Source of the DNA: a virus
Virus record (IMG/VR): IMGVR_UViG_3300024520_000018
Strand: one strand, 5' to 3'
DNA: 41,657 nucleotides
Shown: in pieces, positions 9,681-41,657 of the stretch
Position numbering within the stretch: the first letter of the stretch is position 1
How the letters are laid out: every line of letters begins with the position of its first letter
The notes under the pieces: model-generated
Told to the model about the DNA's origin: nothing
Seen by the model: only the letters and a program-made list of their open reading frames with translations
Databases searched by the model: none
Program-made: the position numbers and the translations under genes

Positions 9681-10922
9681 ATGCCAGCTACAACTACCAC
9701 TTTTGATGCGGTGTTGAAGGACTGGTTTCTAGGAAAAGTACGAGATACACTGAATGAAAAAGTAACAATGTTTGATATTGCTAACGCAGCTTCTGAACGT
9801 GTTGGTGGTAGAAGACTTGTTTATCCTGTCCACGTTGGTAGGAACTTTGGTGTAGGTACTAGAGCAGAACGAGGAACTTTACCTACTGCACAAAACGAAG
9901 TCTATGTAACAGCCACAGTATCACCAAAATATTGGTATGGTCGTATTGAAGTTTCCGCACAGGCTATGAAACAGTCTCAAGGAGATAGAGCAGCATTTGC
10001 TGAAGCTATGTCCGAGGAAATGGATAGAATGACTCGTAACAGTCGTAAGTATTTTAATAGGATGCTTTATTTTGGTAGTCGTGGTGATTTATCTACAGTT
10101 GCTTCTGACCAATCTTCGGTCGGTACAACAACTGTGAATGTAACATCTTCAACAGTAAATGTCGGAAGCCCACTTCGCTTTATTCAAGCTGGTATGATAC
10201 TAGATGGATTAAGTGCTTCAGGTGCTGCCACAGAGACATCTTCTGTATCTACTGACTTCACTTCTGCTACAGTAGTTTCCGCTACTGTCGGAGCAAGTGG
10301 GTCTTCCACTATTACATTTTCAGCAACAGTTACTGTCGTATCAGGAACGATTATGACGTTGACGGGATGTGGTTTTAACGATTTTAATGGTGTAAACGAT
10401 GGTATTGATTCCTCTGGAACATACGCTGGAGTGAGTCGTGATGCCTACAGTAACAAATCGTGGAGAGCCAATATTCTTGGAAATAGTGGAACTAATAGAC
10501 CTCTTACGCTCAACCTATTGCAACAAGCATGGGATGCTGCTTCAGAGGCTTCTGGTGAAGATGACACTACTACTCACCTTATTTCTCACTACAGTGTGAG
10601 GCGTGAGTATTTAGACCTTCTTACACCAGACGTGCGATTCACTGCACAAACACTGAAAGGTGGACATAAAGTATTAGACTTCAACGGAGCACAGTTCCGA
10701 TTTGAAGTAGATGCACCTTTCAATACTGTTTACGGAATCAATGCACCTTCATGGCATCTATATAAGATATCAGACTTTGAATGGGCAGATGAAGACGGAT
10801 CAGTATTAAGCAGAGTTAACAACATAGACTCATTTGAAGGATTTATGAGAATGTTCGGTAACTTTGGTACAGATGCACCGAATAAGAATTTCAGGATTAC
10901 TGATATTCAAGCAACACTTTAA
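9681..10922 (+). CDS. major capsid protein (HK97-fold expected)
   Basis: 413-aa ORF after the scaffold-like gene, with a strong RBS (GGAGTAAGCTATG) and a structured element downstream. Contains a Ser/Thr-rich stretch at about 10080-10360. Confidence 0.65.
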   Translation: MPATTTTFDAVLKDWFLGKVRDTLNEKVTMFDIANAASERVGGRRLVYPVHVGRNFGVGTRAERGTLPTAQNEVYVTATVSPKYWYGRIEVSAQAMKQSQGDRAAFAEAMSEEMDRMTRNSRKYFNRMLYFGSRGDLSTVASDQSSVGTTTVNVTSSTVNVGSPLRFIQAGMILDGLSASGAATETSSVSTDFTSATVVSATVGASGSSTITFSATVTVVSGTIMTLTGCGFNDFNGVNDGIDSSGTYAGVSRDAYSNKSWRANILGNSGTNRPLTLNLLQQAWDAASEASGEDDTTTHLISHYSVRREYLDLLTPDVRFTAQTLKGGHKVLDFNGAQFRFEVDAPFNTVYGINAPSWHLYKISDFEWADEDGSVLSRVNNIDSFEGFMRMFGNFGTDAPNKNFRITDIQATL

Positions 10923-11036: not shown

Positions 11037-11519
11037 ATGGCAATTAAAAATAGAAATATTGCAGCAAACAATCCAATGAAAAGTGAAATGCTTCGATTTG
11101 GATTTGCAGATTATGGTTCAGGCACAGCGTTAGCCGATACGAATCTATATATACCTGTTCCTCATAACGGAAGGGTAAAAGAAATTGTAGCTTTGGCAGG
11201 TGTTTCTGGTGGTGCTGGAAACTCTGGTTCGGTTACATTAAATTTCTATCGTGCTAATTCTTCTTCCATAGCATCAGCCACAACAACAAGTCTATTGGCT
11301 TCTGGTGGAATTAGTTTCAACTCGGGAACAACAGTTGGTTCTATCTCTACCGCTACGCTAAACACTTCTATTGTTACTGGCAATAAAGGTGGTATGGTAG
11401 TTAGTGCAGGAACAACATTACTGATTAACAGTGATTTTACCGCCACTTCTACAGTGAACTTTATACAAGGGTATATTCGTATTGAGTATGATGATGCCCC
11501 TGCGGATGACGGGAAATAA
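11037..11519 (+). CDS. Ser/Thr/Gly-rich virion protein (decoration or head-fibre candidate)
   Basis: 160-aa ORF following the capsid gene, with RBS GGAGAGCAAATATG. Contains low-complexity S/T tracts (ANSSSIASATTTSLLASGG...). Confidence 0.4.
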   Translation: MAIKNRNIAANNPMKSEMLRFGFADYGSGTALADTNLYIPVPHNGRVKEIVALAGVSGGAGNSGSVTLNFYRANSSSIASATTTSLLASGGISFNSGTTVGSISTATLNTSIVTGNKGGMVVSAGTTLLINSDFTATSTVNFIQGYIRIEYDDAPADDGK

Positions 11520-12059
11520 ATGAATCCTGATAGGTATATTCTAAACGAACTAAAACGATTAGATGAAAACTTATCGGTCCAATGGAATGGAAGGAAGTGT
11601 CGTTGGGAAGTTTTTTACCGAAGACATTTCCTTCGCCCATCGGAACGAAAAAGATTTAGCCACATAGCCACGTTCTATGATCGTGGAGTACCTATTAAAC
11701 TATATGAACCTAAACCCATAGATAGATGGCATATATGTTTTTGGGAAGGGGATAATGGTGAGTTCAGGACATTGGATTATGGATTGATACTTCAGTTAAA
11801 GGAATGGGATAACTGGAGACACGCAAGACCAGATGACATTTGGTTAGCAGCAGAAAAAGAAGAATACGAAGAAGAGAGAAAGAAATCAAGACAACAAAAA
11901 GAAATGTTTAAAGATATTGCGTTAGAAAATGATGGTGCTTTGAGAAAACAAATGGATGACTATACTTCTTTTAACAAAAGAGGTTGGCACGTTTGGACTC
12001 CGACAAATCATCGAGTAGGGATAGACTTTAAAAATAAAAAGAAAAAGGTGAAAACCTAA
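11520..12059 (+). CDS. hypothetical basic protein (179 aa)
   Basis: Abuts the previous stop (TAAATG). Trp/Arg-rich. No family recognised. Confidence 0.55.
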   Translation: MNPDRYILNELKRLDENLSVQWNGRKCRWEVFYRRHFLRPSERKRFSHIATFYDRGVPIKLYEPKPIDRWHICFWEGDNGEFRTLDYGLILQLKEWDNWRHARPDDIWLAAEKEEYEEERKKSRQQKEMFKDIALENDGALRKQMDDYTSFNKRGWHVWTPTNHRVGIDFKNKKKKVKT

Positions 12060-12751
12060 TGGCAACTACAGCAACTACCATTATAACCGAAGTAAGAACA
12101 TTATCGGATACAGATAGTGCAACAGCTACATTAAGTGATGCTCAAATATTGACAGCAGCAAACTCTGCACATGAACATTATTATGATTTAATTGTAGCTG
12201 CTGACGAAGGTCATTTTGAAGAAATACATACAGCAAGTTTAGTTGCTGATAGTCGTAATCTAAGCCCTGCTGTAACCTCTACATTTAGAAAAATTGATTT
12301 GGTCGAAGTCATACAAAGCGATGGAGACAGACAACCAGCTATTCCATTGAGTGCTAAAACAGAGAAGTTTTATTTTGAAAGTGGAAATACAACTGCTACA
12401 AGAAACGACCAATTTTATTATTATATAGAAGCAAATGCTATACAACTTGTACCTACCCCAACACAAGCAGCAACAGACGCTATTGAAGTTACCTTTGTTC
12501 CTCAAGCAACTAGACTTTCTACTACCACAACAGTAATAGATTGTCCAGATCGATGGTCAAAAGTTATTGTTTTGAGAACATTGTTAAATTTACAATTACG
12601 CCTAATGGATAATCGTGATCCTAGAGAAGAATTAGCTAATGAAGAAAAAACTCTAGTTCAAACGCTAGAGGGAAGGCAAAGACAATCTCCTCGAAGGATT
12701 GTACCTACAGATAATGAGGGTTCTACAGTTGACGGAATTTGGGTTGGATGA
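12059..12751 (+). CDS. putative head-tail adaptor or connector protein
   Basis: TAATG coupling. The call rests on position after the head genes and a 230-aa size only. Confidence 0.35.
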   Translation: MATTATTIITEVRTLSDTDSATATLSDAQILTAANSAHEHYYDLIVAADEGHFEEIHTASLVADSRNLSPAVTSTFRKIDLVEVIQSDGDRQPAIPLSAKTEKFYFESGNTTATRNDQFYYYIEANAIQLVPTPTQAATDAIEVTFVPQATRLSTTTTVIDCPDRWSKVIVLRTLLNLQLRLMDNRDPREELANEEKTLVQTLEGRQRQSPRRIVPTDNEGSTVDGIWVG

Positions 12752-13727
12752 ACAGTTTGAAGAAGTAGATTGTCCTTTATGTAGTTCAAAGAAACGTGAT
12801 GTATATTTTGAACATAATGATGATCCATACTTAAACCAATTAAAAGTACCAAAAGATTTTAAAGTATCTTTCTATTATTGTGATGATTGTGAACTCATAT
12901 ATCAATCTCCTAGATGGACTAAAAAAACAGCAGGTAGGTTTTATAGCAAGTTATATAGACCACAAACACCACAACAAAAGAATGTAGATTACAAGTTAAA
13001 GGATGCAGCAGATGTTTATGACTTCATTCACGAAGACAAGGTTTTCCCTAAATCAGGAAGGATGCTCGATGTGGGCACTGGCGAGGGATTGTTACCATAT
13101 ACCCATGAAAAGATGGGAGAGAATGGTGGGCCTAAGTGGGATACTTATGCGATAGAACCTAATAAAGTATATGCAGATTGGGCTAGGGCGAATAAGTTGT
13201 GTCAAGTGGAAACAGGGGAGTTTAAGAAGAAGTCTTGGCGTAACTTAACATTTGACTTAATTACAGCACAGCAAGTGTTAGAACATATACACGATCCTGT
13301 AGCTTTTTTAAAGTTGTGTAACGATAGATTATATTCCGATGGTTGGTTATTTATAGGAGTTCCCACAGTGGAGTATCCTTGGGGTAATGAATATAACCGA
13401 TTTAATATGATGTGCGATAACTTTACTGCTTCACCACATTTAACTTTATATACACCTAGAACATTAGGTAGAATGTTAAATAAGGCAGGATTTTATTTGG
13501 AACGATTAGACTATTACAGTAGAGGAATACGTTCCCTATCTCGCAAACTTCGCCCAAAGGAAACGCAAGAGCATTATGGTAGAGAGAATAGAAAGCGAAT
13601 CGAAGAAACCTTCAAAAACTGTTGTGCACTTGAACGGGAGCACTTGGCTAAACAACAGGAAGCTGTCAGCAGTGAAGGAGACAGCGAAAAGGATAAAGGA
13701 GTGGAAGTACCTGCTGTATCGAACTAA
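12699..13727 (+). CDS. class I SAM-dependent methyltransferase with N-terminal Zn-ribbon
   Basis: CPLCSS...CDDCELIYQSP (4-Cys ribbon) followed by motif I GRMLDVGTGEGLL and QQVLEHIHDP. The start is uncertain (TTG 12699, ATG 12714, TTG 12744). Confidence 0.75.
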   Translation: MYLQIMRVLQLTEFGLDEQFEEVDCPLCSSKKRDVYFEHNDDPYLNQLKVPKDFKVSFYYCDDCELIYQSPRWTKKTAGRFYSKLYRPQTPQQKNVDYKLKDAADVYDFIHEDKVFPKSGRMLDVGTGEGLLPYTHEKMGENGGPKWDTYAIEPNKVYADWARANKLCQVETGEFKKKSWRNLTFDLITAQQVLEHIHDPVAFLKLCNDRLYSDGWLFIGVPTVEYPWGNEYNRFNMMCDNFTASPHLTLYTPRTLGRMLNKAGFYLERLDYYSRGIRSLSRKLRPKETQEHYGRENRKRIEETFKNCCALEREHLAKQQEAVSSEGDSEKDKGVEVPAVSN

Positions 13728-14643
13728 ATGGCATAATGCAGGGAAAAAGTTTCTTAACTTGGTTTATACTCCAAAGTTTCCTATACATTTAGATATTGAA
13801 CTTAGCTATGCCTGTAACTTTAAATGTACCATGTGTCCACAGGCATACGATGAAAATGTAAAGGGAGCCATGAAGTATGAATTGGCTGATCGTTTGCTAA
13901 CAGAAGCTGCTGAGATGGGAGTCTCCAGTATTAAATGGAACTGGAGAGGGGAGGCAACTCTACATAAACAGATTGCTCAATTAACAAGGAAAGCAAAGGG
14001 TTTAGGTATTCCTGAAGTGCAGTTAAATACCAATGGAAATATGAGAGGTTGCAAGGTAGAAGATTTAATAGACGCTGGAGTAGATAGAATTATATTCAGT
14101 GTAGATGGGAATACGAAAGATACCTTTGAGAATATACGGATAGGTGGAGACTTTGACGAACTTACGGAAACGATTGAGCAAGCAGTTTCGTACCGAGAAA
14201 GTAAAGGGTTATCTAAACCGTTTATTCGTGTGCAAATGTGCAAGCAAAAAAGTAACGAACACGAAGTCGAAGGATTCGTCAGAAAGTGGAAAGATATAGT
14301 TGACGATGTAAGAGTATCGGCAGTGATGGATAGAGGAGCTGACGGAAACTTTCTGATAGACGATTGGGTTGCAGTGGAGAGAGCAGTATGTAAGCAACCT
14401 TTTCAAAGATTAACGATTGGATATGATGGCAAAGTAATGGGATGTTGTGCTGATTGGTTTGAAAATAGACCAGTAGGCGATGCCAATACACATAGTTTGG
14501 AAGAGATTTGGAACAATTCTATAGAGTTACAAGATATGAGGGATGCACAACATGAAGGCAGGCAAGAAGAAACTGCACCATGCGAGTCATGTTGGGCTAA
14601 AGACGCATGGGTATGGAGGTTAGGAAATGCCAAACATAAATAG
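13576..14643 (+). CDS. radical SAM enzyme with C-terminal SPASM/twitch-type Cys cluster
   Basis: CNFKCTMC (CX3CX2C, nt 13813-13836), then CKQPFQRLTIGYDGKVMGCCADW and APCESCW. The only in-frame ATG upstream of the cluster gives a 152-nt overlap with the methyltransferase. A GTG near 13669 is an alternative start. Confidence 0.8.
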   Translation: MVERIESESKKPSKTVVHLNGSTWLNNRKLSAVKETAKRIKEWKYLLYRTKWHNAGKKFLNLVYTPKFPIHLDIELSYACNFKCTMCPQAYDENVKGAMKYELADRLLTEAAEMGVSSIKWNWRGEATLHKQIAQLTRKAKGLGIPEVQLNTNGNMRGCKVEDLIDAGVDRIIFSVDGNTKDTFENIRIGGDFDELTETIEQAVSYRESKGLSKPFIRVQMCKQKSNEHEVEGFVRKWKDIVDDVRVSAVMDRGADGNFLIDDWVAVERAVCKQPFQRLTIGYDGKVMGCCADWFENRPVGDANTHSLEEIWNNSIELQDMRDAQHEGRQEETAPCESCWAKDAWVWRLGNAKHK

Positions 14644-15013
14644 ATTTAATAAGCCTGATATATTGGAAAGATATAATGAGATGGGACCAGGGCGTAATAA
14701 TCCGATGCAAGAACTTGAGCCATTTACTCCTTGGGATGATAGAAAAGGATTAGTAGCTCCTGGAATGCCTAACGATCCTTTAATAGACCCTAAAATGGAA
14801 CCTTTTTTAAGAGATTTTTTTCCTACTATAAGACAGTTTGCTCCATCTCCTACAGCACCAAATTATAGCATGGGAAAGATAAAACCTGATGATGGATGGG
14901 GCCCTAGATCGCCAGAAGAAAAACAGGAAATTATGAGACAAGAAGAAGAACAACAAAAAATGGCAATATTTGAGTTATTAAGGCAGTTATTACAACAAAG
15001 AAGACAAATCTAA
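14627..15013 (+). CDS. Pro-rich small protein, paralog 1 (128 aa)
   Basis: Starts MPNI..., ends ...FELLRQLLQQRRQI. Overlaps the rSAM stop by 17 nt. RBS GGAGG. Confidence 0.55.
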   Translation: MPNINRFNKPDILERYNEMGPGRNNPMQELEPFTPWDDRKGLVAPGMPNDPLIDPKMEPFLRDFFPTIRQFAPSPTAPNYSMGKIKPDDGWGPRSPEEKQEIMRQEEEQQKMAIFELLRQLLQQRRQI

Positions 15014-15049
15014 ATGGTTGATATTTTAGGTGGGTATGGGGGTTAGAAA

Positions 15050-15313
15050 ATGCCAAACATAGTAGGACCTAACAAAAATCCTTTTGTAGAATTTAATGGA
15101 TTAGCTAATATACCAGATAAAAGTAATGTATATTCTCCAATGAGATTTATGGAAAACCCAAATTTCAGATCAAGTATGCCTCAATTTACGCCAAGAGGAG
15201 GTGTAGGGAATATGGGTCAATTCGGAATGATAGGTTCCCCTTCCCAACCAGTAGTTAATCCAAATATGCAATTAAGAGCAATTATAGAATTATTAAGAAG
15301 AATGGGTATGTAA
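15050..15313 (+). CDS. Pro/Asn/Met-rich small protein, paralog 2 (87 aa)
   Basis: Starts MPNI..., ends ...IELLRRMGM. Its initiation region is a 29/31-nt copy of the one at 14608-14638. Confidence 0.55.
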   Translation: MPNIVGPNKNPFVEFNGLANIPDKSNVYSPMRFMENPNFRSSMPQFTPRGGVGNMGQFGMIGSPSQPVVNPNMQLRAIIELLRRMGM

Positions 15314-15925
15314 ATGGCAGAAAATATAGATTGGGAATTTATAAGAGAGAAAGAAGGTTTTGAACTTGTAGGCTATGTTCCAATCACAAAAAAATTAAAG
15401 TCTGGTGTAACGATAGCGTCTGGATTTGATTTAGGTCAAAAAAACGAGGGCGATCTACAAGGTTTACCCCCCACTATTATAAAAAAATTAATTCCTTATT
15501 TAGGAATAAAAGGGGAGGAAGCAAACAAAAAAGCATCAAATTTAACAATAACAGAAGATGAAGCTAACATAATTAATAAGTTTGCTAAAACAAAGTCTTT
15601 AAATAAACTTAGCTCTGATTGGGAAAATGCTACTGGTTATTCGTTAAGTGAACTATCTCCAGCACAAGCAACCGCTTTAGCTTCTGTAGGATTCCAATAT
15701 GGAGATATGAAATCAAAAACTCCTAAATTCTGGAAATATGCTACAAGTGGAAATTGGGACAAAGCATATAATGAGTTGATGGATTTTAAAGACGAACATC
15801 CTACAAGAAGAAAATCAGAAGCTGATCTTTTGTTTAAAGAAATGGGTGTTCCTTCTGATAGTATGTTTGGAGAAGCTATGCAATTATCAGACAATAATAT
15901 CAATACCATAAGAGAGGGTTATTAA
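15314..15925 (+). CDS. pesticin-type (T4-lysozyme-like) muramidase
   Basis: WEFIREKEGFELVGYVPI...SGVTIASGFDLGQ...ASVGFQYG...HPTRRKSEADLL matches the pesticin C-terminal/lysozyme-like family as I remember it. Confidence 0.7.
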   Translation: MAENIDWEFIREKEGFELVGYVPITKKLKSGVTIASGFDLGQKNEGDLQGLPPTIIKKLIPYLGIKGEEANKKASNLTITEDEANIINKFAKTKSLNKLSSDWENATGYSLSELSPAQATALASVGFQYGDMKSKTPKFWKYATSGNWDKAYNELMDFKDEHPTRRKSEADLLFKEMGVPSDSMFGEAMQLSDNNINTIREGY

Positions 15926-16023: not shown

Positions 16024-16698
16024 ATGATTCCCATTGTAGTACAGGCAAGAATGGATTCAAGACGTTTGTATGGCAAGGTGTTGATGCCTATTACGGGTGG
16101 TTGTGCTTTAAGTCATCTGTTGGATAGATTGTTTCTCACCGAAATGAAAGTCATTGTTGCTACTACCAATAGAGATACCGATAAACCCTTACAAATGTTT
16201 TGTGAACATTATGAAATAGATGCTTTCTATGGTGCGGTAGAGATACCTAAAAGGCTATGGTCAGTGGCAGAGTTAAACAATGCAGACCATATAGTGAGAG
16301 TTACCGCAGACGATATACTAGTAGACCCTGACTACCTTAAAATGGCAGTGAGGGAGCACGTAGAGAATGGAGCAGACTTTACGCATATACCAAAGTTACC
16401 AAAAGGTTTTGACTGCGAAGTAATTTCTAGGAACGCATTACTGGAATTGATGAAGATAGATTCCGAAACAGAGTATATAGGAAAGATATTAAAAGATAAG
16501 ACTTTATTTAAAGTACATGAAGTAGAGGTAGATAAAAGGCATAGAAAGCGTTTCAACTATGAGTTAAATGAATACAAAGACTTGAAAAAATTAAGAGAGT
16601 TATTCTCTGATTTGCATAGTAATCATTCACCGCCATTTTGTCTCGATCACGTTATCGAGTATTTAGATTATCAAAAGTCAAAGGAAAAAGTGCGATGA
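16024..16698 (+). CDS. sugar cytidylyltransferase (SpsF/PseF/KdsB-type, CTP_transf_3-like)
   Basis: N-terminus IPIVVQARMDSRRLYGKVL and VRVTADDILVDP fit the (I)QARxxSxRLPGK ... RxTxDxPxxDP pattern of CMP-sugar synthetases. Confidence 0.75.
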   Translation: MIPIVVQARMDSRRLYGKVLMPITGGCALSHLLDRLFLTEMKVIVATTNRDTDKPLQMFCEHYEIDAFYGAVEIPKRLWSVAELNNADHIVRVTADDILVDPDYLKMAVREHVENGADFTHIPKLPKGFDCEVISRNALLELMKIDSETEYIGKILKDKTLFKVHEVEVDKRHRKRFNYELNEYKDLKKLRELFSDLHSNHSPPFCLDHVIEYLDYQKSKEKVR

Positions 16699-17306
16699 AC
16701 CCATTCTTCACAGTCTATATTCCGTTTCATACTTATGGTTATGCTATTAAAGCAAAAGATGCGTTACGTTCCTTAGATGCTCAATCGTTCACTTCATTTG
16801 AAACGATACTGATAGCGAATGGTACTTCGTTTCCAAGTTGGATGAGTGAAGGCGATGTATACAAAAGCACTGGCGTATTTGGTAGGAAGATAATAGGTGG
16901 GGAATACCATACGTTGGGAGCAGCAGCCAACGCAGCAATAGCGTTAGCAAAGGGTAATTGGATAGTTAGGTTAGATGCTGATGATTACCTTGAATCAAAC
17001 GCTTTGTGGCACTTTGTAAATACGATAGAGCAACACTCTGACAAACCTATTATAGGAGTGCAAGGACATTGGGATGAAGATAATCCTGATAAAGTAATGG
17101 GAGCAGGGTTAGCGATACAGACAAGTCTATTGCAAGAAGTTTGTGGGTACAACGAAGAAGAACCTATCAATGATGGAGAGTCTATTGTTCGGAAGATATC
17201 TAATGAAGTTTTTGGAACTGCTACATCAAAATGGGGATTAGTCAGAACAGAGAAACCTATTTATAATTATGAACGACATGAAGGGAGTATGTCATGTCCA
17301 AGTTAG
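16695..17306 (+). CDS. family 2 glycosyltransferase (GT-A fold)
   Basis: FTVYIPFH...LRSLDAQSFTSFETILI, then LGAAANAAIALAKGNWIVRLDADDY (DxD). ATGA overlap with the upstream gene. The track start at 16638 is probably too early. Confidence 0.7.
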   Translation: MNPFFTVYIPFHTYGYAIKAKDALRSLDAQSFTSFETILIANGTSFPSWMSEGDVYKSTGVFGRKIIGGEYHTLGAAANAAIALAKGNWIVRLDADDYLESNALWHFVNTIEQHSDKPIIGVQGHWDEDNPDKVMGAGLAIQTSLLQEVCGYNEEEPINDGESIVRKISNEVFGTATSKWGLVRTEKPIYNYERHEGSMSCPS

Positions 17307-18097
17307 CGAAGTTATTCGGACCTGATGCGAAATACCCCTTAGTACGTTCCTATCAAGAGAAAGAAGCACCAGAGTTAGAGTTTATTGCAGGGCCATGTTC
17401 TGTAGAGAATTTGGAACAGATATATGCCATAGCTTGTAAGGTACGAGAAAATGGAGCAACCATGTTACGAGGTGGTTGTTATATATATGGAACGTACCCT
17501 CCGAAAAATAGTGGATTTGTAGCAGATAGATCACTATCTCTTTCAACAGCAGCAGATGGAAACAAACTTCCTTGGATAGTGGAAGTGATGGATGCACCAG
17601 ATATGCAACACGTTACAGATGCAGATTGGATACAGATAGGTATGCGTCATGCACAACATTATCCGTTGTTAAAAGCGATAGCTTCTTATGGAAAGAAAGT
17701 ATTATTAAAGCGTGGTTCATGGATGACAGTCGATGAAACGCTTGGGGCTATAGAGTATTTGCTTCAACATGGGGCAGAAGATGTAGCAATATGCGAGAGA
17801 GGAATCGTTAGCTTTGAAGACCATTGTAGGTGGAGTTTCTCTGCTTCGTTTATTGCGATGATAAAAGAATATACTGCATTGAAAATAGTAGCTGATCCTT
17901 CTCATGGCAGTGGAGACAGAAAGTTAGTTCCTAGACTTGCGAGAGCTGGAGTGGCAGCAGGTGCTGATGGAGTGTTATGTGAAGTACATCCTAACCCCAA
18001 CGAGTCTGTTTCCGATGCAGAACAAGCGATTGATTATGACACCTTTGAACAAGTAGTGAAGGGGTGTAAAGAAATAAAGGGATATGTTTATGGCTAA
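17294..18097 (+). CDS. DAHP/KDO8P synthase family aldolase (type I-beta-like), atypical PEP loop
   Basis: IAGPCSVEN, IQIGMRH, VLLKRG, ICERGI, ADPSHGSGDRKLV and GADGVLCEVHPNPNESVSDAEQA. The canonical RGGAFKPRTSPY loop is replaced by RGGCYIYGTYPPKNSGF. Confidence 0.65.
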   Translation: MSKLAKLFGPDAKYPLVRSYQEKEAPELEFIAGPCSVENLEQIYAIACKVRENGATMLRGGCYIYGTYPPKNSGFVADRSLSLSTAADGNKLPWIVEVMDAPDMQHVTDADWIQIGMRHAQHYPLLKAIASYGKKVLLKRGSWMTVDETLGAIEYLLQHGAEDVAICERGIVSFEDHCRWSFSASFIAMIKEYTALKIVADPSHGSGDRKLVPRLARAGVAAGADGVLCEVHPNPNESVSDAEQAIDYDTFEQVVKGCKEIKGYVYG

Positions 18098-19679
18098 CAA
18101 CCTTCAAATGTATAGAGTAGAGTTTGGTCAAAATATAGGTGGAATTAATGATTCTACACAAATAACGTCTGTAAAACAAAATGAAGCCTTAGACATACAT
18201 AATGTAAGATTAATACCTACCGGTGGAATACAGAAACGTAAAGGATATTATGTTGTCAATACAGCTAGTCTTGTCGGTTCTGGAACGATTACTGGGATTT
18301 TTAATTATTTACGTTTTACTGGAAACTCAGACTTAATCGTATGTGTGAATAGTGGTACTTCTGCGAGTAAAATATATAAGAAAGACGCTGGAACGAATAC
18401 GTTTACTTCTATTACACCTTCTGGAACATTCGCGGGTGGCGATGTAACTTTCGCTGTATCTAACGATATATTGATGATTGCGTCTGATGGTGGTTCTAAT
18501 ATTTTAAAATGGGATGGTTCTGCTACTGCTTGTACGGATTTGAATACTGCTACTGCTCCTTTAGGGCAAGTTGTAACAGATTGGAATAGACACGCTGTTG
18601 CTTTAAAAATACCAGCAAGAGGAAGTAATTTCGAAATATCACATCAAGGTGATTCTACACAGTGGAGAAATTCTGATCGGTTTCCTACAGACAGACAAAC
18701 TGTAGGTGCTACATCTTTACTAGGCAAACTGTATGTTTTTACTACAGATAGAATGTATGCTGTATCTGGAAATGACAGAGACAACATATCCATGCTTCCA
18801 GTTAGACGTTCCGTAGGAGGAACAAACCAAAGAAGTATAGTAAACGTAGCAAATAGAAACTTGATTGTATGGCCTTGGCGTGGAAACTTTTACGAATTTG
18901 ATGGAACCACTACCAACATAATTTCAAATAGGTTAGAAAGACCTTTAGCAAATACGAGTGATTTTTTTAATGTAAATCAATCTCTTTTTGATAATATACA
19001 AGGGGTAAATATAGCTTCAGAATCAAGAGTAAGTTTTTTGATTGCTGCAAGAAATAAAACACAAAATAGTTTCGTACTAAATTACCATTACGATTTAAGA
19101 ACACCAGACCCTAAGACTGGGAAAAGTATAGGTGCTTGGACTGTAGATAAATACGATAGAAACTTTGCGTATCTCGCTGTATCAGTAGAGGATGAAAAAG
19201 AGATTTTATATGCTGGAGATTACGATGGTCATGTATGTAGGTTAGATGTAGGGGATGCAGATGGTGATTCTTCCGAAGATGCAAACGATGGAAATGCTAT
19301 CCCATCAAGGTATCAGACTGGTCCATTTCACAACAATATGCCAGACATGACAAAAAGATGGAGAGAAATCATTCCTGTCGTTGGTCAAACTTCTAGTGGT
19401 ACTGTAACGATATCTACCGCAGAGAATTGGGCTGGTAGTTTTATAACCGCAGATACTGTTGCTTTGACTACAGGAGGGTTTGCTTCCTATTGGGGAGTAT
19501 CTAAATGGGGAGAAGGTCTTTGGGGAGCAGCGATATCGGTAATTAAACGATTATCTTTATCAAACCGAAGCGAAGCTCTTTCTATTAAGTTTTCTGATTC
19601 CAGTAAAGACCCTGCATGGCGAATCGATACTTGGGTATTGAGATTCCAGATACTGCCTGGTCTAAGGAGATTCCCATAA
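18090..19679 (+). CDS. tail structural protein (nozzle, tubular or baseplate-like; family not recognised)
   Basis: 530-aa ORF whose ATG overlaps the upstream stop (ATGGCTAA). Beta-rich composition. Lies directly upstream of the tail-fibre genes. Confidence 0.4.
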   Translation: MANNLQMYRVEFGQNIGGINDSTQITSVKQNEALDIHNVRLIPTGGIQKRKGYYVVNTASLVGSGTITGIFNYLRFTGNSDLIVCVNSGTSASKIYKKDAGTNTFTSITPSGTFAGGDVTFAVSNDILMIASDGGSNILKWDGSATACTDLNTATAPLGQVVTDWNRHAVALKIPARGSNFEISHQGDSTQWRNSDRFPTDRQTVGATSLLGKLYVFTTDRMYAVSGNDRDNISMLPVRRSVGGTNQRSIVNVANRNLIVWPWRGNFYEFDGTTTNIISNRLERPLANTSDFFNVNQSLFDNIQGVNIASESRVSFLIAARNKTQNSFVLNYHYDLRTPDPKTGKSIGAWTVDKYDRNFAYLAVSVEDEKEILYAGDYDGHVCRLDVGDADGDSSEDANDGNAIPSRYQTGPFHNNMPDMTKRWREIIPVVGQTSSGTVTISTAENWAGSFITADTVALTTGGFASYWGVSKWGEGLWGAAISVIKRLSLSNRSEALSIKFSDSSKDPAWRIDTWVLRFQILPGLRRFP

Positions 19680-19981
19680 TGCCATCTAAAAAACTTATAC
19701 CTCCTGTTTTTATACAGGATTTAACAGATGAATTTGCTCCTTCTATTATTCACGAAAATGTTGAAAATATATACAACTTTTTAGATAGTCATTTTGAATG
19801 GGGATCAGCAACATCAAATACAGGAACTACTTTATCAAGAATTAAGTCAACAGACTATATTGTAAATATCACCCCTTTAGCAGAACCAGGAAGTGCGACA
19901 GTTACAAAAGCTACTGCATCTTTCACTTACACAACAAGTGCTACAGTGGCATTTAATTATTTAGTTATTGGATCAAGTTAG
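19679..19981 (+). CDS. small tail-associated protein (100 aa)
   Basis: TAATG coupling at 19677-19681. The in-frame ATG at 19679 is more plausible than the track start at 19616. Confidence 0.45.
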   Translation: MPSKKLIPPVFIQDLTDEFAPSIIHENVENIYNFLDSHFEWGSATSNTGTTLSRIKSTDYIVNITPLAEPGSATVTKATASFTYTTSATVAFNYLVIGSS

Positions 19982-19989
19982 GAGTTATT

Positions 19990-21840
19990 ATGGGAACAGT
20001 TTCTCGCCCTTACACTTACACTGCTGGTGATGTTATTCAACCAGCCGAAGTTACAGATAACGAGACTACTTTATATACTCTCGTTAATGGAAATTTAGAC
20101 AACGACAACATAGATTCTTCGGCAGGAATTAAGGCAGCTAAACTTGATCTTGCCTCAGCGACTACAGCTTCATTCTCTACGAATGTGCTTATGTCTTTGT
20201 CTTCCACAATTACATTGGGAACAACAACACAAACGATTGCTGTAGGTAGTTCTGCTACAGTAACTATCACCGCTAGTGGCGGAGTTGCCGAAATCGGCAA
20301 AATGACTGTCATAGCTAGTGCTACTGTCGGCAATCTTAAAGTGTCAGGTACTGCGACATTGGGTGCATTGGCTACGCTAGGTACATTGGTCGTATCAGGA
20401 ACTGCTACGATAAGTGGTCTGGTATGTAGTGGCACTGCGACTGTCGGAGATTTGAAAGTATCCAACACAGTTACCATACCGAACTTAGTGGTATCAGGAA
20501 CAGCCACACTTGGTAATATTATAGCGAGTGGTACAGCAACTTTAAAGTCAATCGTAGTAAGTGGAACTGCTACCATTGGTGATTTAAAGGTAAGCAATAC
20601 TGTTACGTTACCTCGAATAGTAGTGAGTGGCACTGCAACGATAGGAAACATGATTATAAGTGGCACAGCTACTTTAAAATCTATTATTGTAAGTGGTACT
20701 GCGACATTAGGTGCGATGTTAGTGAGTGGAACTGCTACCTTCTCTACTGTACCCTTATTCCCTAACAACACTATTGAGACAGCAGATATTCAAGACAATG
20801 CAGTAACTCTTGCGAAGATGGCAGGATTGGCGAGAGGAAAGATTATTTATGGTGATGCTTCTGGTGATCCAGCAGCATTGACAGTAGGTTCTACTTCTAC
20901 AGTATTAACAACAGATGGTGTTGATATTTCATGGGCTGCTGTTAGTGGAGGAACTTCTACTTACGCTAGCATAGTGGTATCAGGAACAGCGACATTGGGT
21001 AATATCAAAACTAGTGGAACTATATCTGTATCTGCTACAGCGACAATGGATCATTTGTTAGTAAATGGCTCAGGAGCAAGTATGGCTCATTTTAAAGCTA
21101 CTGGAGCCGATGTAGATCATGTTTTAATAGAAAGTACTGATGGTGGTGCAGGCGAAGGCCCAGGGATGGCGTTCTACAGAAACAGTGCAAGTCCTGCTGA
21201 TAATGATCAGACTGGTAGAATACGTTGGTATGGTAATGATTCGGCTGGTGCTAAACGTCATATTGGTGGTGTTAATTGTAAATTTGCCGATGTTACCAAT
21301 ACCTCGATAGATTCACAAATAAGTATGGTTTCTTATAAGGACAACTCTGAACTAGTAGCATTGACAGTTCATGGGTCAGACGTAACTGTAGCAGGTAATC
21401 TTACAGTTGGAGGATCATTATCTGGTGCTGGTGGAAAAGTATTACAAGTTGTAAATATGTCAACCACGAGTGTTACAACTACCACATCATCATCTTATGT
21501 AGACACTAATTTAACTCTAGGAATCACACCTTCCGCTTCTTCTTCTGTTGTAATTGTTGAATGGGCAGGAACTTTCAATCTTGGTGGAACCAGAGGAACG
21601 TGGGCTGACATTGGGTTAGAGAGAGGAACTTCATCAATTCATTCATGGGGTGGTGAATACGCTGAAGGATTAGCTACTGGAAACTTTGATTTGCACTTTC
21701 CTTTAAGTGGGTCAATGAAAGACTCACCGAATACAGCAGGAGCAGTAACATATACAGTGCAGATCAGGACTGCTGGTGGAACCGCTAAGATGATAAGTCG
21801 AGGCACAGGCATTATGATTATATCAGAAATAGGAGCATAA
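19990..21840 (+). CDS. tail fibre or tail spike with SGTAT repeat domain
   Basis: N-terminus ...YTAGDVIQPAEVTDNETTLYTLVNGNLDNDNIDSSAGIKAAKLDL is the conserved phage-fibre N-terminal pattern. It is followed by 11 copies of SGTAT at roughly 14-aa spacing. Confidence 0.7.
   Translation: MGTVSRPYTYTAGDVIQPAEVTDNETTLYTLVNGNLDNDNIDSSAGIKAAKLDLASATTASFSTNVLMSLSSTITLGTTTQTIAVGSSATVTITASGGVAEIGKMTVIASATVGNLKVSGTATLGALATLGTLVVSGTATISGLVCSGTATVGDLKVSNTVTIPNLVVSGTATLGNIIASGTATLKSIVVSGTATIGDLKVSNTVTLPRIVVSGTATIGNMIISGTATLKSIIVSGTATLGAMLVSGTATFSTVPLFPNNTIETADIQDNAVTLAKMAGLARGKIIYGDASGDPAALTVGSTSTVLTTDGVDISWAAVSGGTSTYASIVVSGTATLGNIKTSGTISVSATATMDHLLVNGSGASMAHFKATGADVDHVLIESTDGGAGEGPGMAFYRNSASPADNDQTGRIRWYGNDSAGAKRHIGGVNCKFADVTNTSIDSQISMVSYKDNSELVALTVHGSDVTVAGNLTVGGSLSGAGGKVLQVVNMSTTSVTTTTSSSYVDTNLTLGITPSASSSVVIVEWAGTFNLGGTRGTWADIGLERGTSSIHSWGGEYAEGLATGNFDLHFPLSGSMKDSPNTAGAVTYTVQIRTAGGTAKMISRGTGIMIISEIGA
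20335..20745 (+). repeat. in-frame tandem repeats inside the tail-fibre gene (about 42-nt period; 132-nt higher-order duplication at 20446-20577 / 20578-20709)
   Basis: GDLKVSNTVTIPNLVVSGTATLGNIIASGTATLKSIVVSGTATI is followed directly by GDLKVSNTVTLPRIVVSGTATIGNMIISGTATLKSIIVSGTATL. Confidence 0.8.
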
Positions 21841-22295: not shown

Positions 22296-22529
22296 ATGAA
22301 TAATTTAGGGGTTTGCATAAGTGCGTTTGTAGCGTTAATAGGTGGTTTATATATTGTATTGCAACTGTATGCTTACCCTTTACCAGAAGGTAGGAAATTG
22401 GAAGTGCGTGTCGATTCCAATGAGAAAATGGTACAGAGTATGGACATGAGACAGAGGTCTATAGCAGATAAAGTAGGAAAGATACATGGCATACTGGTTG
22501 ATCAAATTAAAGATAAGAATCACGATTAA
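22296..22529 (+). CDS. small single-pass membrane protein (77 aa)
   Basis: N-terminal helix GVCISAFVALIGGLYIVLQLY followed by a charged tail. Confidence 0.5.
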   Translation: MNNLGVCISAFVALIGGLYIVLQLYAYPLPEGRKLEVRVDSNEKMVQSMDMRQRSIADKVGKIHGILVDQIKDKNHD

Positions 22530-22546
22530 CCGCCCTAGAGGTGTAT

Positions 22547-23494
22547 ATGGATAACGCAGGTCTTCTAAAGAAGGAACAGTTAAAAGCTAGGAACGAAAAG
22601 ATAATGCAAGGTTGGTTACACAAATGGATATCCAATACTGCAACTAACTATGGAAGTAAACTGTTAGGCGAAGAAGAAAACTTTTCTAACTTGTTCATGG
22701 CACATAAAAACAAACCTGCATTGATTACAGGATCAGGACCTAGCCTTGAAGATACAATACCTCATATAAAGAACTTTGATGGGTTGGTTATCAGTACCAA
22801 TAGTTCTATGAGTCTGTTAATGAAGAATGGTATTAAACCAGACTATGTACATATTTTTGATGGTCAATATGAACCAAAGAGAATAGGGAACCTTCCCATA
22901 GATGATGTTACATTGATATGTGCGACCTTTGTTTTGCCAGAGATGGTAAAGTTTTGGAAAACGAAAGGGAAGGTATATGGGTTCAGTGCTTTCGATCCAG
23001 AGGAAGCATGGTTTAAAAAGTATATGTGGTATATGTACCGAGACTATGTAGGTATTCCCACTAGTGGTTCGGTAGGCCCTAACGCTATTCGGTTAGCAGC
23101 CTATATGGGTTGCAATCCCATTATCTTAACAGGGTTAGACCAAACCTTCACTGGTGGTAAGTATCGAGTAGATCAATACGACTACATTGATAATAAATAT
23201 GTATTAAAAGATTTTGATCACGAAGAAGCGATTAACAAGCAACCTATCAGTTATCACAATGGCAAACAGCTTTGGTATATCACTGGGATGATGTACCGAA
23301 CAGCGATTGTAGGTATAGCAGATGAGTTAAGGGATAAAGGATTATCGGTTGTTCGTTGTCATAATAAAGGCGATAAGAATTTTTATAAGGTAGAAGGTGT
23401 TCTACTAGAAGAAACTAAAGGAATTGAAGTAATGAACGCTACCATGAGTGGCGTATGGAAGAATGAACTTCCAAGATATAACTTAGTAGCATAG
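22547..23494 (+). CDS. Maf/DUF115 (MptE-like) family protein, putative protein glycosyltransferase
   Basis: KPALITGSGPSLEDTIPHIKNFDGLVISTNSSMSLLMKNGIKPDYVHIFDG and GSVGPNAIRLAAYMGCNPIILTGLDQTF fit the DUF115 core (GPSL ... KPD ... GSV ... G-D). The ATG at 22547 follows AGAGG; the track start is GTG 22541. Confidence 0.6.
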   Translation: MDNAGLLKKEQLKARNEKIMQGWLHKWISNTATNYGSKLLGEEENFSNLFMAHKNKPALITGSGPSLEDTIPHIKNFDGLVISTNSSMSLLMKNGIKPDYVHIFDGQYEPKRIGNLPIDDVTLICATFVLPEMVKFWKTKGKVYGFSAFDPEEAWFKKYMWYMYRDYVGIPTSGSVGPNAIRLAAYMGCNPIILTGLDQTFTGGKYRVDQYDYIDNKYVLKDFDHEEAINKQPISYHNGKQLWYITGMMYRTAIVGIADELRDKGLSVVRCHNKGDKNFYKVEGVLLEETKGIEVMNATMSGVWKNELPRYNLVA

Positions 23495-33999: not shown

Positions 34000-34267
34000 G
34001 GCTATGTCGCAATCTTTGATATGGCGAGTTGTTATTTTGTGTGTTTTCTTGTCTAAACCTTTCAAAATCGCTTAAATAAACTCTTGTGTGTCCCAACCTC
34101 CCATCGTGTCTTTTAAGACGAAAAACTCTTGGGAACACTCCATCTTTCACCATTCTTCTTACTGTTTGGAGACTTACATTCATAATTTGACTAATCTCTG
34201 CCAATGTCAACATTCGATCAATTTCTTCTGCATTGTTTGTTTCCATGTTTTCTCCTATAGTTTTCAT
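33983..34267 (-). CDS. HTH_17/excisionase-type (MerR-like) DNA-binding protein
   Basis: MLTLAEISQIMNVSLQTVRRMVKDGVFP is a typical helix-turn-helix. ATGA overlap with the upstream glycosyltransferase gene. Confidence 0.6.
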   Translation of the reverse strand: MKTIGENMETNNAEEIDRMLTLAEISQIMNVSLQTVRRMVKDGVFPRVFRLKRHDGRLGHTRVYLSDFERFRQENTQNNNSPYQRLRHSHEKEV

Positions 34268-41606: not shown

Positions 41607-41657
41607 TTTAAAGCCTCCTATTAAAAGAAATAAATAATAATAATATTTATACATTAA
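41531..41657. repeat. Terminal direct repeat, copy 2 (identical to 1-127)
   Basis: Same comparison as for copy 1. Confidence 0.95.

Follow-up and report, generated by a model that had tools for sequence, protein, structure and literature searches.

Gene organisation of the locus

The window considered here, i.e. the whole stretch of viral DNA analysed (41,657 nucleotides), is a complete phage genome in which no integrase was recognised. At 22547..23494, on the plus strand, it carries a gene for a 315-residue protein of the PF01973 family (MptE-like / Maf_flag10), a predicted CMP-ulosonic-acid transferase that we called mini-Maf. The listing of reading frames gives 22541..23494 with a GTG start, and an ATG is found at 22547, which is favoured as the start because a Shine-Dalgarno-like AGAGG (22537-22541) lies 5 nt before it. 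This agrees with the frame and start given in a preliminary description of this DNA, and the peptides quoted there (KPALITGSGPSL, IKPDYVHIFDG and GSVGPNAIRLAAYMGCNPIILTGLDQTF) are all present in the translation.

The mini-Maf gene belongs to the tail block of a podovirus, where the fibre gene lies on one side of it and genes for large virion-type proteins on the other. The tail fibre gene (19990..21840, plus strand) lies upstream, its end being separated by 701 nt from the listed GTG, and encodes exactly 11 SGTAT motifs with an 11-residue (33-nt) period, matching the earlier account of a fibre with 11 such repeats about 700 nt upstream. Immediately before mini-Maf, a small gene (22296..22529, plus strand) encodes a 77-residue protein with a hydrophobic N-terminal helix, which is 83-100% conserved in close relatives and has a 79-residue counterpart with a hydrophobic N-terminus in the same slot of contig L015.

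Further upstream on the plus strand is a putative sugar-making cassette of three genes (16024-18097), followed by the gene of a conserved, beta-rich 531-residue protein (18084..19679), whose start overlaps the stop of the last cassette gene, a synthase, and which always stands behind the synthase gene in the relatives. This protein shows a weak match to phrog_511 ('internal virion protein') and none in Pfam or the PDB, and its single-sequence AF2 model (pLDDT 33) was unusable for fold search; it is probably a tail or virion component. To the left lie an SU10 adaptor (12059-12751) and the major capsid protein (9681..10922, plus strand; phrog_14242, 192 bits), the latter sharing no more than 28% identity with any deposited phage. 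A promoter and terminator scan of the region from 12 to 27 kb gave counts at or below shuffle expectation and no signal that sets mini-Maf apart; since the counts do not exceed this expectation, the scan says nothing on operon boundaries.

A predicted minimal Maf-type glycosyltransferase

The preliminary description noted a resemblance to the DUF115/Maf proteins and proposed comparisons with Pfam and with Maf structures, and both comparisons bear it out. Mini-Maf matches PF01973 MptE-like with 101.7 bits (E = 4.8e-29, profile positions 13-169 of 171), against a curated gathering cutoff of 34.6 bits, and the sole significant match in a PDB sequence search is the Maf structure 5MU5 (E = 1.2e-5). 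The same structure came first in a Foldseek search (E = 1.9e-6, probability 1.0) with an AF2 model of mini-Maf of moderate confidence (pTM 0.82, pLDDT 77.6), the TM-score being just 0.45 over the query. It was followed by the CMP-sialic-acid sialyltransferases 5BO8, 2WNF, 1RO8 and 6APL and, below these, by thiamin pyrophosphokinases (E = 0.025-0.1).

In a MAFFT alignment with the 5MU5 fragment, Maf E324 and D415 correspond to D105 and D198 of mini-Maf, which are invariant in the mini-Maf subfamily, and the same positions are Asp in all sampled Maf-like proteins. In the Maf of M. magneticum, E324 and D415 were reported to be essential (bioRxiv 10.1101/2020.06.03.131540). The GSGPS nucleotide loop is also retained in mini-Maf, and the invariant stretch T172-S173-G174-S175 aligns with the SGPT region of 5MU5, the Maf used for this comparison; in CbMaf, S334 is the conserved catalytic Ser of the Maf_flag10 domain. 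Cst-II has a catalytic His whose counterpart would be expected behind D198, and no invariant histidine is present there. By profile, modelled fold and catalytic residues, mini-Maf is thus a Maf/DUF115-type enzyme.

The architecture of the protein is different. In our profile search the classical Mafs carry the domain at about residues 200-400 of about 600-650, as part of a three-domain arrangement with an N-terminal Rossmann-like domain and a C-terminal helical/TPR domain that binds the acceptor. In mini-Maf the MptE-like domain begins at about residue 44, after one N-terminal helix, about 110 residues stand behind it, and neither flanking domain is present. The label 'flagellin-type', which had been attached to the protein, fails on this architecture. 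No flagellin or flagellar gene is found among the annotated open reading frames of the complete phage genome, the neighbours being the tail fibre and virion genes. Mini-Maf is best read as a minimal Maf-type glycosyltransferase, i.e. a Cst-II-like catalytic domain, predicted to be CMP-sugar-dependent and devoid of the flanking acceptor-binding domains. No membrane segment is present in its sequence and no DNA-binding feature is evident.

From sequence and model, mini-Maf is predicted to be a cytoplasmic, CMP-ulosonate-dependent enzyme for O-glycosylation on Ser/Thr. It is the co-encoded enzymes, together with the fold, that point to a CMP-ulosonate as the class of donor; Maf enzymes take CMP-Kdo in addition to CMP-nonulosonates.

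The predicted sugar-making cassette

The first gene of the cassette (16024..16698, plus strand) encodes a cytidylyltransferase of the CTP_transf_3 family (PF02348, 51.3 bits against a threshold of 22.6), with a match in the PDB to the cytidylyltransferase 6OEW (E = 2.8e-11). The similarity to the KdsB families is weak, and all specific equivalogs score far below their cutoffs. PF02348 comprises the CMP-ulosonate synthetases KdsB, NeuA, PseF and SpsF-like, and we predict the product to be a CMP-ulosonate synthetase. Its stop codon overlaps the ATG of the second gene (16695..17306, plus strand), which encodes a small GT2 glycosyltransferase with a DAD motif (PF00535, 33 bits) and which the preliminary description did not mention.

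The third gene (17294..18097, plus strand) encodes a DAH7P-synthase-like PEP aldolase, a predicted ulosonic acid synthase (PF00793, DAHP_synth_1, 151 bits), that matches 1VS1 in the PDB (E = 2.9e-55). The metal- and PEP-binding residues are kept (C35, H204, E230, D241, R118 and K139/R140), and the KPRTS aldose-phosphate motif is changed to IYGTY. This change is clade-wide: (I/V/R)xGTY replaces KPRT(S) in a small clade of synthases that we found only on phage-like contigs. An assignment as KdsA (KDO8P synthase) was rejected, with 78.8 bits against a cutoff of 242, as was one as NeuB (sialic acid synthase), with 20.3 bits against 22.1. The enzyme was also discarded as a genuine type I-beta DAH7P synthase, as it falls below the equivalog cutoffs (PRK08673, 252 against 335; TIGR01361, 230.7 against 267.75) and has lost KPRT(S). 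By sequence, the cassette synthase is closest to the type I-beta DAH7P synthases, and is a derivative of these with a remodelled acceptor site. The earlier assignment to an ulosonic-acid type therefore holds as regards a PEP aldolase of the DAHP_synth_1 family, and has to be corrected in that the enzyme is a DAH7P-synthase derivative and not of the sialic-acid (NeuB) type.

Two more genes may belong to the pathway. The first, at 13576..14643 (plus strand), encodes an enzyme with Radical_SAM and SPASM domains, whose best PDB match is BlsE, cytosylglucuronate decarboxylase. In contig L001 this gene directly abuts that of the cytidylyltransferase, and each of the two proteins matches one half of the fusion family TIGR04321 (spiro-SPASM), a Rosetta-stone relationship. 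The radical SAM/SPASM enzyme probably tailors the sugar. The second (12699..13727, plus strand) encodes a class I SAM methyltransferase (Methyltransf_23, 70 bits) that close relatives retain along with the radical SAM gene, and Methyltransf_23 genes adjoin the altered synthase also in L033 and in contig P0183. A role of this methyltransferase in sugar tailoring is possible.

Conservation and distribution of mini-Maf

In all relatives with a contig that covers the locus, mini-Maf shows 91-99% identity, whereas the flanking genes diverge (52-75% identity for the fibre and 40-59% for a 914-residue protein). It remains syntenic with the cytidylyltransferase, the small GT2 and the DAH7P-synthase-like enzyme down to 43-49% identity, so that the pairing of the Maf-like gene with a cytidylyltransferase and an ulosonic-acid-type synthase on the same strand, pointed out before, extends to distant relatives. 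CTP_transf_3, GT2 and synthase stand in the same order, their start and stop codons overlapping, in L001, L015, L032 and L034 at 29-58% identity; the cytidylyltransferase is conserved in L001 and L032, and the GT2 in L001, L032 and L034.

In a separate siphovirus lineage, mini-Maf genes come next behind that of the major tail protein and ahead of the chaperones and the tape measure. Some siphovirus mini-Mafs are accompanied by a full NeuB/CTP_transf_3 nonulosonic-acid pathway within the structural module. In L055, genes for GNAT, SDR, DegT, NeuB and CTP_transf_3 stand between those for the capsid and the connector, and a second MptE-like gene closely precedes the capsid gene. The survey of related phages suggested in the preliminary description thus places mini-Mafs beside genes for the major tail protein and the capsid, in some cases with a sugar pathway of their own, which favours virion glycosylation. 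As all siphovirus loci belong to one deep lineage, the independent contexts of gene position number just two.

A profile of the mini-Maf subfamily retrieved 8,305 relatives at E ≤ 1e-3, and a scan of 185,579 species genomes of bacteria and archaea did not turn up any member; the subfamily is known here only from uncultured phage-like contigs. Searches of 50,697 GenBank phage records by tblastn and blastn, with mini-Maf, two outgroup mini-Mafs and the portal-capsid region, gave chance-level matches only (E of about 0.7-0.9), and pattern scans for distant viral mini-Mafs ended in alignments that were too divergent or in no match.

Candidate acceptors

Three proteins of the virion region are candidate acceptors. 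The tail fibre has a combined Ser and Thr content of 26.5% and no match in a PDB sequence search. It is hypervariable among the relatives (52-75% identity, 8-13 repeats). In L001 and L015 its N-terminus is conserved and the SGTAT repeats are absent. The preliminary description had tied these repeats, as the acceptor, to the Maf-like gene, a link that is weakened: the repeats are not conserved with the gene, and since they are missing from diverged relatives that still have mini-Maf, they are not a required acceptor. The Ser/Thr-rich tracts noted earlier in two other proteins are both present, namely in the major capsid protein (residues 137-228, approximately; 20.6% Ser and Thr overall) and in a 160-residue protein of the head/tail block (11037..11519, plus strand; 22.5%), which gave no family match. 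Two further small proteins, of 116 and 121 residues, are Ser/Thr-rich as well. Ser/Thr richness is common in beta-rich virion proteins, and the composition is therefore weak evidence for an acceptor.

Proposed function and alternatives

We propose that mini-Maf performs the last step of a phage-encoded pathway that would be expressed with the late structural genes. In the first step, the DAH7P-synthase-derived metallo-aldolase (17294-18097) would form a 3-deoxy-2-ulosonic acid by condensation of PEP and an aldose, probably one other than erythrose-4-P or arabinose-5-P, because the phosphate-binding KPRT motif is replaced. The sugar may then be tailored by the radical SAM/SPASM enzyme and the methyltransferase, and would be activated with CTP by the cytidylyltransferase (16024-16698). 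The last step would be a cytoplasmic one, in which mini-Maf links the sugar of the CMP-activated donor to hydroxyl groups of Ser/Thr on exposed virion proteins as these await or undergo assembly; the prime candidate is the tail fibre, and the capsid and small Ser/Thr-rich proteins are the alternatives. In a variant of this step, the transfer could be made onto a sugar first placed by the co-encoded GT2. The outcome would be an acidic sugar on the virion.

On balance, we lean towards this reading, i.e. that mini-Maf, acting in the cytoplasm, O-glycosylates virion proteins of the phage itself with an ulosonic acid that the phage makes and activates as the CMP-sugar. For the acceptor, it is solely the position of the gene that points to a virion protein, and what counts against it is that mini-Maf has neither of the known means of recognising an acceptor, a TPR domain or a GlfM partner. 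A broader proposal, which we put forward tentatively and hold to be somewhat doubtful in its entirety, is that diverse uncultured phages share an undescribed class of self-glycosylation, in which minimal Mafs attach acidic sugars of the ulosonic or nonulosonic type, the products of phage pathways inside the structural operon, by O-linkage to the exposed fibre, tail tube or capsid. In the present phage this would involve a new sugar, made by a descendant of DAH7P synthase that lacks the phosphate-binding site (and is likely to use a non-phosphorylated or unusual aldose, with no phosphatase step) and tailored by the radical SAM/SPASM enzyme and the methyltransferase.

An alternative is that mini-Maf, with the GT2, puts the ulosonic acid on the surface of the host (flagellin, pilin, S-layer protein, LPS or capsule), blocking superinfection or freeing the progeny from receptors. 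This would be the usual 'auxiliary metabolic gene' reading of phage Kdo and NeuA genes, and phage kdsA, kdsB and neuA have indeed been interpreted as genes for cell-surface modification (PMC12801897; PMC5332604). Classical Mafs modify flagellin, and the receptor on the host could be a flagellum or a pilus. Yet mini-Maf lacks both the C-terminal TPR/helical domains that bind flagellin and the membrane segment usually needed for work on lipid-linked glycans, and the subfamily is absent from the bacterial and archaeal genomes searched. In two phage lineages its gene is consistently found with a gene for a fibre or for the major tail protein, and its place in a late structural block would leave little time for the export and assembly of modified filaments or envelope glycans; a long-term change of the host phenotype is unlikely for a phage with a complete genome and no recognisable integrase. 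We consider host-surface remodelling unlikely. The preliminary description had left the choice between glycosylation of the virion and re-glycosylation of the host flagellum; the first is favoured by the gene context of other phage mini-Mafs, and for the second nothing was found in favour, the parts for flagellin recognition being missing.

The same genome encodes a TET-associated glycosyltransferase (TAGT), of the DNA-glycosylation type, a UDP-glucose dehydrogenase and an SDR epimerase, and the presence of TAGT indicates that the phage employs sugars for at least one other purpose. Mini-Maf might modify the phage DNA with the CMP-ulosonic acid, attaching it to a hydroxylated base itself or to a sugar that TAGT has added, in order to evade restriction, and phage clusters that put Kdo and hexuronic acids on 5-hydroxymethylcytosine have been described (bioRxiv 10.1101/2023.12.21.572611). 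However, the Kdo is added there by a GT-B enzyme encoded beside methyltransferase/TET genes and not by a PF01973 protein (same source). In the present genome, the genes for TAGT (34264-35115) and its sugar-nucleotide enzymes are 11-20 kb away from mini-Maf, either in the replication block on the opposite strand or at the left extremity. With the outgroup mini-Mafs adjoining tail-tube and capsid genes, and no DNA-binding feature evident in mini-Maf, a function in DNA hypermodification appears very improbable.

Finally, that the protein is no glycosyltransferase at all, but a pyrophosphokinase, as the name of PF01973 (after the archaeal pterin diphosphokinase MptE) and the weaker thiamin pyrophosphokinase fold matches might suggest, or a structural or assembly factor that lost catalysis, can hardly be entertained, as the Maf and four sialyltransferases rank above the kinases, both Maf catalytic carboxylates and the nucleotide loop are invariant, mini-Maf is strongly conserved beside a cytidylyltransferase and an ulosonate synthase, and the phage genome has no pterin, folate or thiamin genes.

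Comparison with known systems

The closest relatives of mini-Maf are the Mafs that O-glycosylate flagellin with nonulosonic acids, including those of M. magneticum (PDB 5MU5), C. botulinum (CbMaf), G. kaustophilus (GkMaf) and S. oneidensis (Maf-1 and Maf-2). Both have the PF01973/Maf_flag10 domain with a Cst-II-like fold, the GSGPS loop and the two essential carboxylates, and as in Maf loci a cytidylyltransferase and an ulosonate synthase are found in cis. In contrast, mini-Maf is about half the size (315 against about 600-650 residues), with neither the N-terminal Rossmann-like nor the C-terminal helical/TPR domain. Its gene belongs to a phage tail block with no flagellin gene, and not to a flagellar glycosylation island, and its donor pathway has a DAH7PS-derived synthase instead of a NeuB-type one. 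Mafs are being explored for the O-sialylation of recombinant proteins, and mini-Maf, predicted to be active as a Maf catalytic core free of acceptor-binding domains, could be useful for specificity studies and glyco-engineering.

With the sialyltransferases of families GT42 and GT29 (C. jejuni Cst-II, 1RO8; ST8SiaIII, 5BO8; ST3Gal, 2WNF; ST6GalNAc2, 6APL) the likeness lies in the fold of the domain that binds the CMP-sugar (Foldseek E = 5e-3 to 2e-2, probability 0.87-1.0); there is no significant sequence similarity, and those enzymes transfer to glycan acceptors. The Tannerella NulO transferases were also considered, as PF01973 enzymes acting on glycans, and were set aside since the paper gives no such link.

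The cassette synthase shares the TIM-barrel PEP-aldolase family with the type I-beta DAH7P and KDO8P synthases, with the same Cys, His, Glu and Asp metal ligands and the PEP-binding Arg and Lys-Arg. Unlike DAH7P synthases, it belongs to a clade with (I/V/R)xGTY in place of KPRT(S), scores below every curated equivalog cutoff, and is found in a context of glycan synthesis rather than aromatic amino-acid synthesis. With its remodelled site, the clade may represent an ulosonic acid pathway of a new kind.

The phage clusters for DNA hypermodification (TAGT/GT-A and GT-B with MT/TET; bioRxiv 10.1101/2023.12.21.572611) likewise use unusual sugars, including Kdo and hexuronic acids, and a TAGT homologue is present in this genome. 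The mini-Maf cassette differs from them in enzyme family, genomic block and strand, and sits in a structural operon.

Virion self-glycosylation by a Maf-type enzyme is not described in the literature that we searched on DUF115, MptE or Maf in phages and on nonulosonic acids on virions. If our reading is correct, sialic-acid-like protein glycosylation would reach from bacterial flagella to virus particles, and an acidic glycan coat could alter virion charge, adhesion to marine particles, protease resistance, host recognition and decay rates, and thus virus ecology. It would also provide, in abundant marine phages, a second and mechanistically different example of phage self-glycosylation beyond the mycobacteriophages. 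Freeman et al. 2023, as cited in PMC12363180, report that the mycobacteriophages Che8, Corndog and Myrna use their own glycosyltransferases to glycosylate capsid and tail-tube proteins. The logic that we propose for mini-Maf is the same, a phage-encoded glycosyltransferase modifying the virion proteins of its own particle, and as in those systems the mini-Maf genes are embedded in or next to virion structural genes, both in this genome and in the outgroup phages. Of the two, the mycobacteriophage case is the one that is experimentally shown. The actinobacteriophage systems employ conventional glycosyltransferases and host sugar nucleotides, whereas the uncultured marine podovirus would combine a Maf-type transferase with an acidic, CMP-activated ulosonic acid of its own making.

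Family assignment of mini-Maf

The ORF of mini-Maf, our name for a 315-aa PF01973 protein, is listed on the + strand as 22541 (GTG) to 23494, but the ATG at 22547 is the likelier start, because a Shine-Dalgarno-like AGAGG sits 5 nt upstream of it. The peptides quoted in the preliminary description are present in the product, and the resemblance to DUF115/Maf noticed there is borne out: Pfam PF01973 (MptE-like, formerly DUF115/Maf_flag10) is matched at 101.7 bits (E = 4.8e-29; gathering cutoff 34.6 bits), over nearly the entire profile. Among NCBIfam models, only the PseD domain model (flagellin-modification protein) is hit, at 39.6 bits and far under its full-length cutoff, and the sole PHROG match, a weak one, is an 'alpha-2,3-sialyltransferase' family. 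Using a profile of mini-Maf and seven close relatives as query, the single significant PDB chain by sequence was 5MU5, the Maf glycosyltransferase of Magnetospirillum magneticum (E = 1.2e-5). The same structure ranked first (E = 1.9e-6, probability 1.0) in a Foldseek search with an AlphaFold2 model (pLDDT 77.6, pTM 0.82), followed by four CMP-sialic-acid-dependent sialyltransferases (ST8SiaIII, ST3Gal, Cst-II, and ST6GalNAc2), with thiamin pyrophosphokinases ranking below these.

In Mafs, the central PF01973 domain adopts a modified, Cst-II-like GT-A fold; the enzymes of Geobacillus and Clostridium use CMP-Neu5Ac as well as CMP-Kdo to glycosylate Ser/Thr of flagellin. E324 and D415, which are essential in the Magnetospirillum Maf (bioRxiv 10.1101/2020.06.03.131540), align with D105 and D198 of mini-Maf, both invariant across its subfamily; the two proteins also share the GSGPS nucleotide loop. 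Since the 5MU5 match, the fold ranking, D105/D198, and the GSGPS loop agree, mini-Maf is very probably catalytically active as a Maf-type glycosyltransferase dependent on a CMP-ulosonate, and is predicted to work like a Maf.

Classical Mafs have about 600-650 residues, with the PF01973 domain at residues ~200-400, flanked by an N-terminal Rossmann-like domain and a helical or TPR domain at the C-terminus; acceptor recognition resides in the C-terminal domain, or in GlfM, a small four-helix protein encoded in cis. The modelled mini-Maf comprises one N-terminal helix, the catalytic domain, and ~110 more residues. Thus, of the original designation as a flagellin-type Maf, the family, fold, and catalytic residues stand, but not the classical architecture (315 versus ~600-650 aa). 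In several lineages a gene for 77-93 aa lies between a structural gene and the MptE-like gene (22296-22529 (+) in the window; 4806-5045, 548-829, and 8921-9154 in the related phage-like contigs L015, L055, and L056). In the window and L015 its product carries a hydrophobic helix at the N-terminus and a charged helical region after it; the product might be a GlfM-like adaptor or a holin-like protein.

The sugar cassette

The cytidylyltransferase and ulosonic-acid-type synthase previously noted in the block 16024-18097 were confirmed by CTP_transf_3 (16024-16698) and DAHP_synth_1 (17294-18097) matches; a small GT2 (16695-17306) had been missed. Start and stop codons overlap along these three genes and that of a 531-aa protein (18084-19679, +). 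The trio is also found in the contigs L001 and L032, at 29-58% identity, and the GT2-synthase pair in L015 and L034. Downstream of the synthase, L001 and L015 both encode a homologue of the 531-aa protein, then a small protein and a fibre homologue, and, after one or two further small genes, mini-Maf.

The synthase belongs to the DAH7PS/KDO8PS fold family, being nearest to type I-beta DAH7P synthases (PDB 1VS1, E = 2.9e-55), but falls under every curated cutoff, including that for DAH7PS, and its scores rule out KdsA and NeuB. It retains the four metal ligands (C35, H204, E230, and D241) and the PEP-binding R118 and K139/R140, with IYGTY in place of the aldose-phosphate-binding KPRTS. From this replacement we infer an aldose substrate unlike erythrose-4-P and arabinose-5-P, possibly an unphosphorylated one, which would account for the cassette having no sugar-phosphate phosphatase. 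The pattern (I/V/R)xGTY marks a small synthase clade for which all retrievable genomic contexts are phage-like, and KPRT is kept by ~100 of the 120 homologues listed, ordinary cellular enzymes at ~45% identity.

A radical SAM/SPASM gene (13576-14643) immediately adjoins the cytidylyltransferase in L001. Its product matches the C-terminal part, and the cytidylyltransferase the N-terminal part, of a fused spirochaete family, 'spiro-SPASM' (TIGR04321), forming a Rosetta-stone link and suggesting that this family, too, is a cytidylyl-sugar-modifying enzyme. The best solved relative, a weak match, is BlsE, a decarboxylase of a cytosine-linked sugar acid. The adjacency in L001, the spiro-SPASM fusion, and the BlsE match place the radical SAM/SPASM gene with the cassette. 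A Methyltransf_23 gene lies upstream of it, and similar methyltransferases stand beside the altered synthase in other contigs. Together, the genes are predicted to form a coherent make-tailor-activate-transfer pathway for an ulosonic acid.

The radical SAM gene and the cytidylyltransferase are separated (14627-15925, +) by small ORFs of 128 and 87 aa and by a gene for a pesticin-like lysozyme (PF16754, 121 bits), which occurs at this position only in the window and L051 among the fetched loci. This slot of ~0.6-1 kb differs in other close relatives, and the segment is a variable insertion within the cassette.

Conservation of mini-Maf and variability of the fibre

Mini-Maf is present in every contig spanning its site (52 loci fetched). 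Among close relatives it is 91-99% identical at the protein level, against 52-75% for the adjacent fibre (which has 8-13 SGTAT repeats) and 40-59% for the 914-aa protein downstream. Strong purifying selection acts on mini-Maf, next to rapidly evolving genes of host interaction. The fibre is hypervariable in the window and L006-L052 (485-694 aa, differing C-termini), with other genes 86-99% identical.

Upstream of mini-Maf, the fibre ORF (19990-21840) has SGTAT motifs that recur every 33 nt, exactly 11 of them, the number first reported. Its 11-residue repeats have just 60-84% DNA identity within one gene, and are therefore old and maintained at the protein level. In L001 and L015, the fibre homologue shares with it only the N-terminal ~90-160 residues and has no SGTAT repeats, and both contigs keep mini-Maf; the repeats were therefore rejected as a required acceptor.

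Mini-Mafs in other phages

The co-occurrence survey proposed in the preliminary description places distant mini-Mafs (23-31% identity, ~300 aa) in structural modules, often with NeuB and CTP_transf_3. In L053-L060, mini-Maf comes immediately after a major-tail-protein-like gene and before chaperone-sized and tape-measure genes. The eight tail proteins are mutually homologous (28-60% identity; phrog_807 in L053, L054, and L056), and these siphovirus loci represent one deep lineage, giving two independent contexts rather than eight. L053 and L054 both encode a GT-B-like protein, and L054 also a GT2.

L055, of ~47 kb, presents, in order, an MptE-like gene, the 93-aa gene, capsid, two small genes, GNAT acetyltransferase, SDR dehydratase, DegT aminotransferase, NeuB, CTP_transf_3, head-tail connector-sized genes, tail protein, and mini-Maf. 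L056 carries DegT, NeuB, and CTP_transf_3, and L057 NeuB and CTP_transf_3 without DegT; each has an MptE-like gene on either side of the tail protein gene. In L055 (1-10915) and L056 (172-10921), contigs of ~47-48 kb, the nonulosonic-acid pathway lies inside the structural block; of the two MptE-like genes, one immediately precedes the capsid or tail protein gene, and the other immediately follows the tail protein gene. Mini-Mafs thus belong to the structural modules of phages with at least two unrelated types of tail, and a phage nonulosonic-acid pathway often accompanies them; this placement supports modification of virion proteins.

The phage genome

An exact 127-nt direct repeat at both ends (1-127 and 41531-41657), which is either a terminal repeat or an overlap left by assembly of a circular map, indicates a complete phage genome of ~41.5 kb (about 41,530 bp). 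It encodes small and large terminase, portal, a major capsid protein with at most 28% identity to any deposited phage, and an SU10-type podovirus adaptor, with a primase-helicase and an ERF recombinase on the opposite strand; no integrase or DNA polymerase was recognised in the complete genome. Its relatives derive from marine metagenomes. The large terminase seemingly consists of two ORFs (4224-4898 and 5172-6101, +) matching N- and C-terminal parts of terminase families, with ~270 nt between them that hold a 113-aa ORF (4871-5212); this may reflect an intron, intein, frameshift, or truly split gene. Three small proteins of the structural block, of 116 (8522-8872), 160 (11037-11519), and 121 aa (19616-19981), all on the + strand, contain 21-23% Ser+Thr and similar beta-strand-like, S/T-rich C-terminal segments. 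None has any family match, and they could be decoration proteins.

Proposed function

On balance, we favour a role in which mini-Maf would O-glycosylate exposed virion proteins in the cytoplasm, using the CMP-ulosonic acid of the cassette as donor, either directly on the protein or onto a sugar placed by the GT2. Conventionally, phage Kdo/NeuA genes are read as altering the host surface (PMC12801897; PMC5332604); such a role, with flagellin, pilin, or envelope glycans of the host as targets, seems rather unlikely here, since mini-Maf lacks flagellin-binding domains, occupies a late structural-operon position in a genome without recognisable integrase, and is paired with fibre and tail-tube genes. 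The remaining probability falls to acceptors beyond those considered here.

That the cassette sugar serves DNA hypermodification deserved serious consideration but is improbable. Phage clusters do place Kdo and hexuronic acid on 5hmC, but the published Kdo addition is by a GT-B enzyme beside MT/TET genes (bioRxiv 10.1101/2023.12.21.572611). The genome also encodes a TET-associated glycosyltransferase (TAGT; 34264-35115, -; PF20691, 173 bits), a three-domain UDP-glucose/GDP-mannose dehydrogenase (36832-38172, -), and an SDR epimerase/dehydratase (1721-2752, +), but the TAGT belongs to the opposite-strand replication block, and outgroup mini-Mafs have structural genes as neighbours. The set of three enzymes resembles published phage clusters adding hexuronic acid to 5-hydroxymethylcytosine, but in the complete genome we recognised no homologue of a TET/JBP dioxygenase, C5-methyltransferase, or thymidylate synthase to account for the acceptor base. 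A kinase or inactive protein is hardly credible, being contradicted by the fold ranking, catalytic residues, and gene context.

Comparison with known systems

The mini-Maf subfamily is very small: 5.8 billion clustered proteins include 7 relatives, and 1.84 billion representatives yield 9 clusters at E ≤ 1e-30; no member was found in 185,579 species genomes or in 50,697 deposited phage genomes. UniProt-derived viral structure entries bear just an automatic 'MptE-like' label, and our literature search turned up neither a Maf-type enzyme described from a phage nor virions described as glycosylated with ulosonic acids. The precedent for glycosylation of virions is found in mycobacteriophages, whose capsid and tail-tube proteins are glycosylated by phage glycosyltransferases (PMC12363180). 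With classical Mafs, mini-Maf has the PF01973 superfamily in common, but differs in architecture, predicted acceptor, and genomic locus. A half-size Maf encoded by a phage, together with an unusual donor pathway of its own, would be surprising to specialists and, judged from the genome, appears to be new, extending both the Maf glycosyltransferases and phage self-glycosylation.
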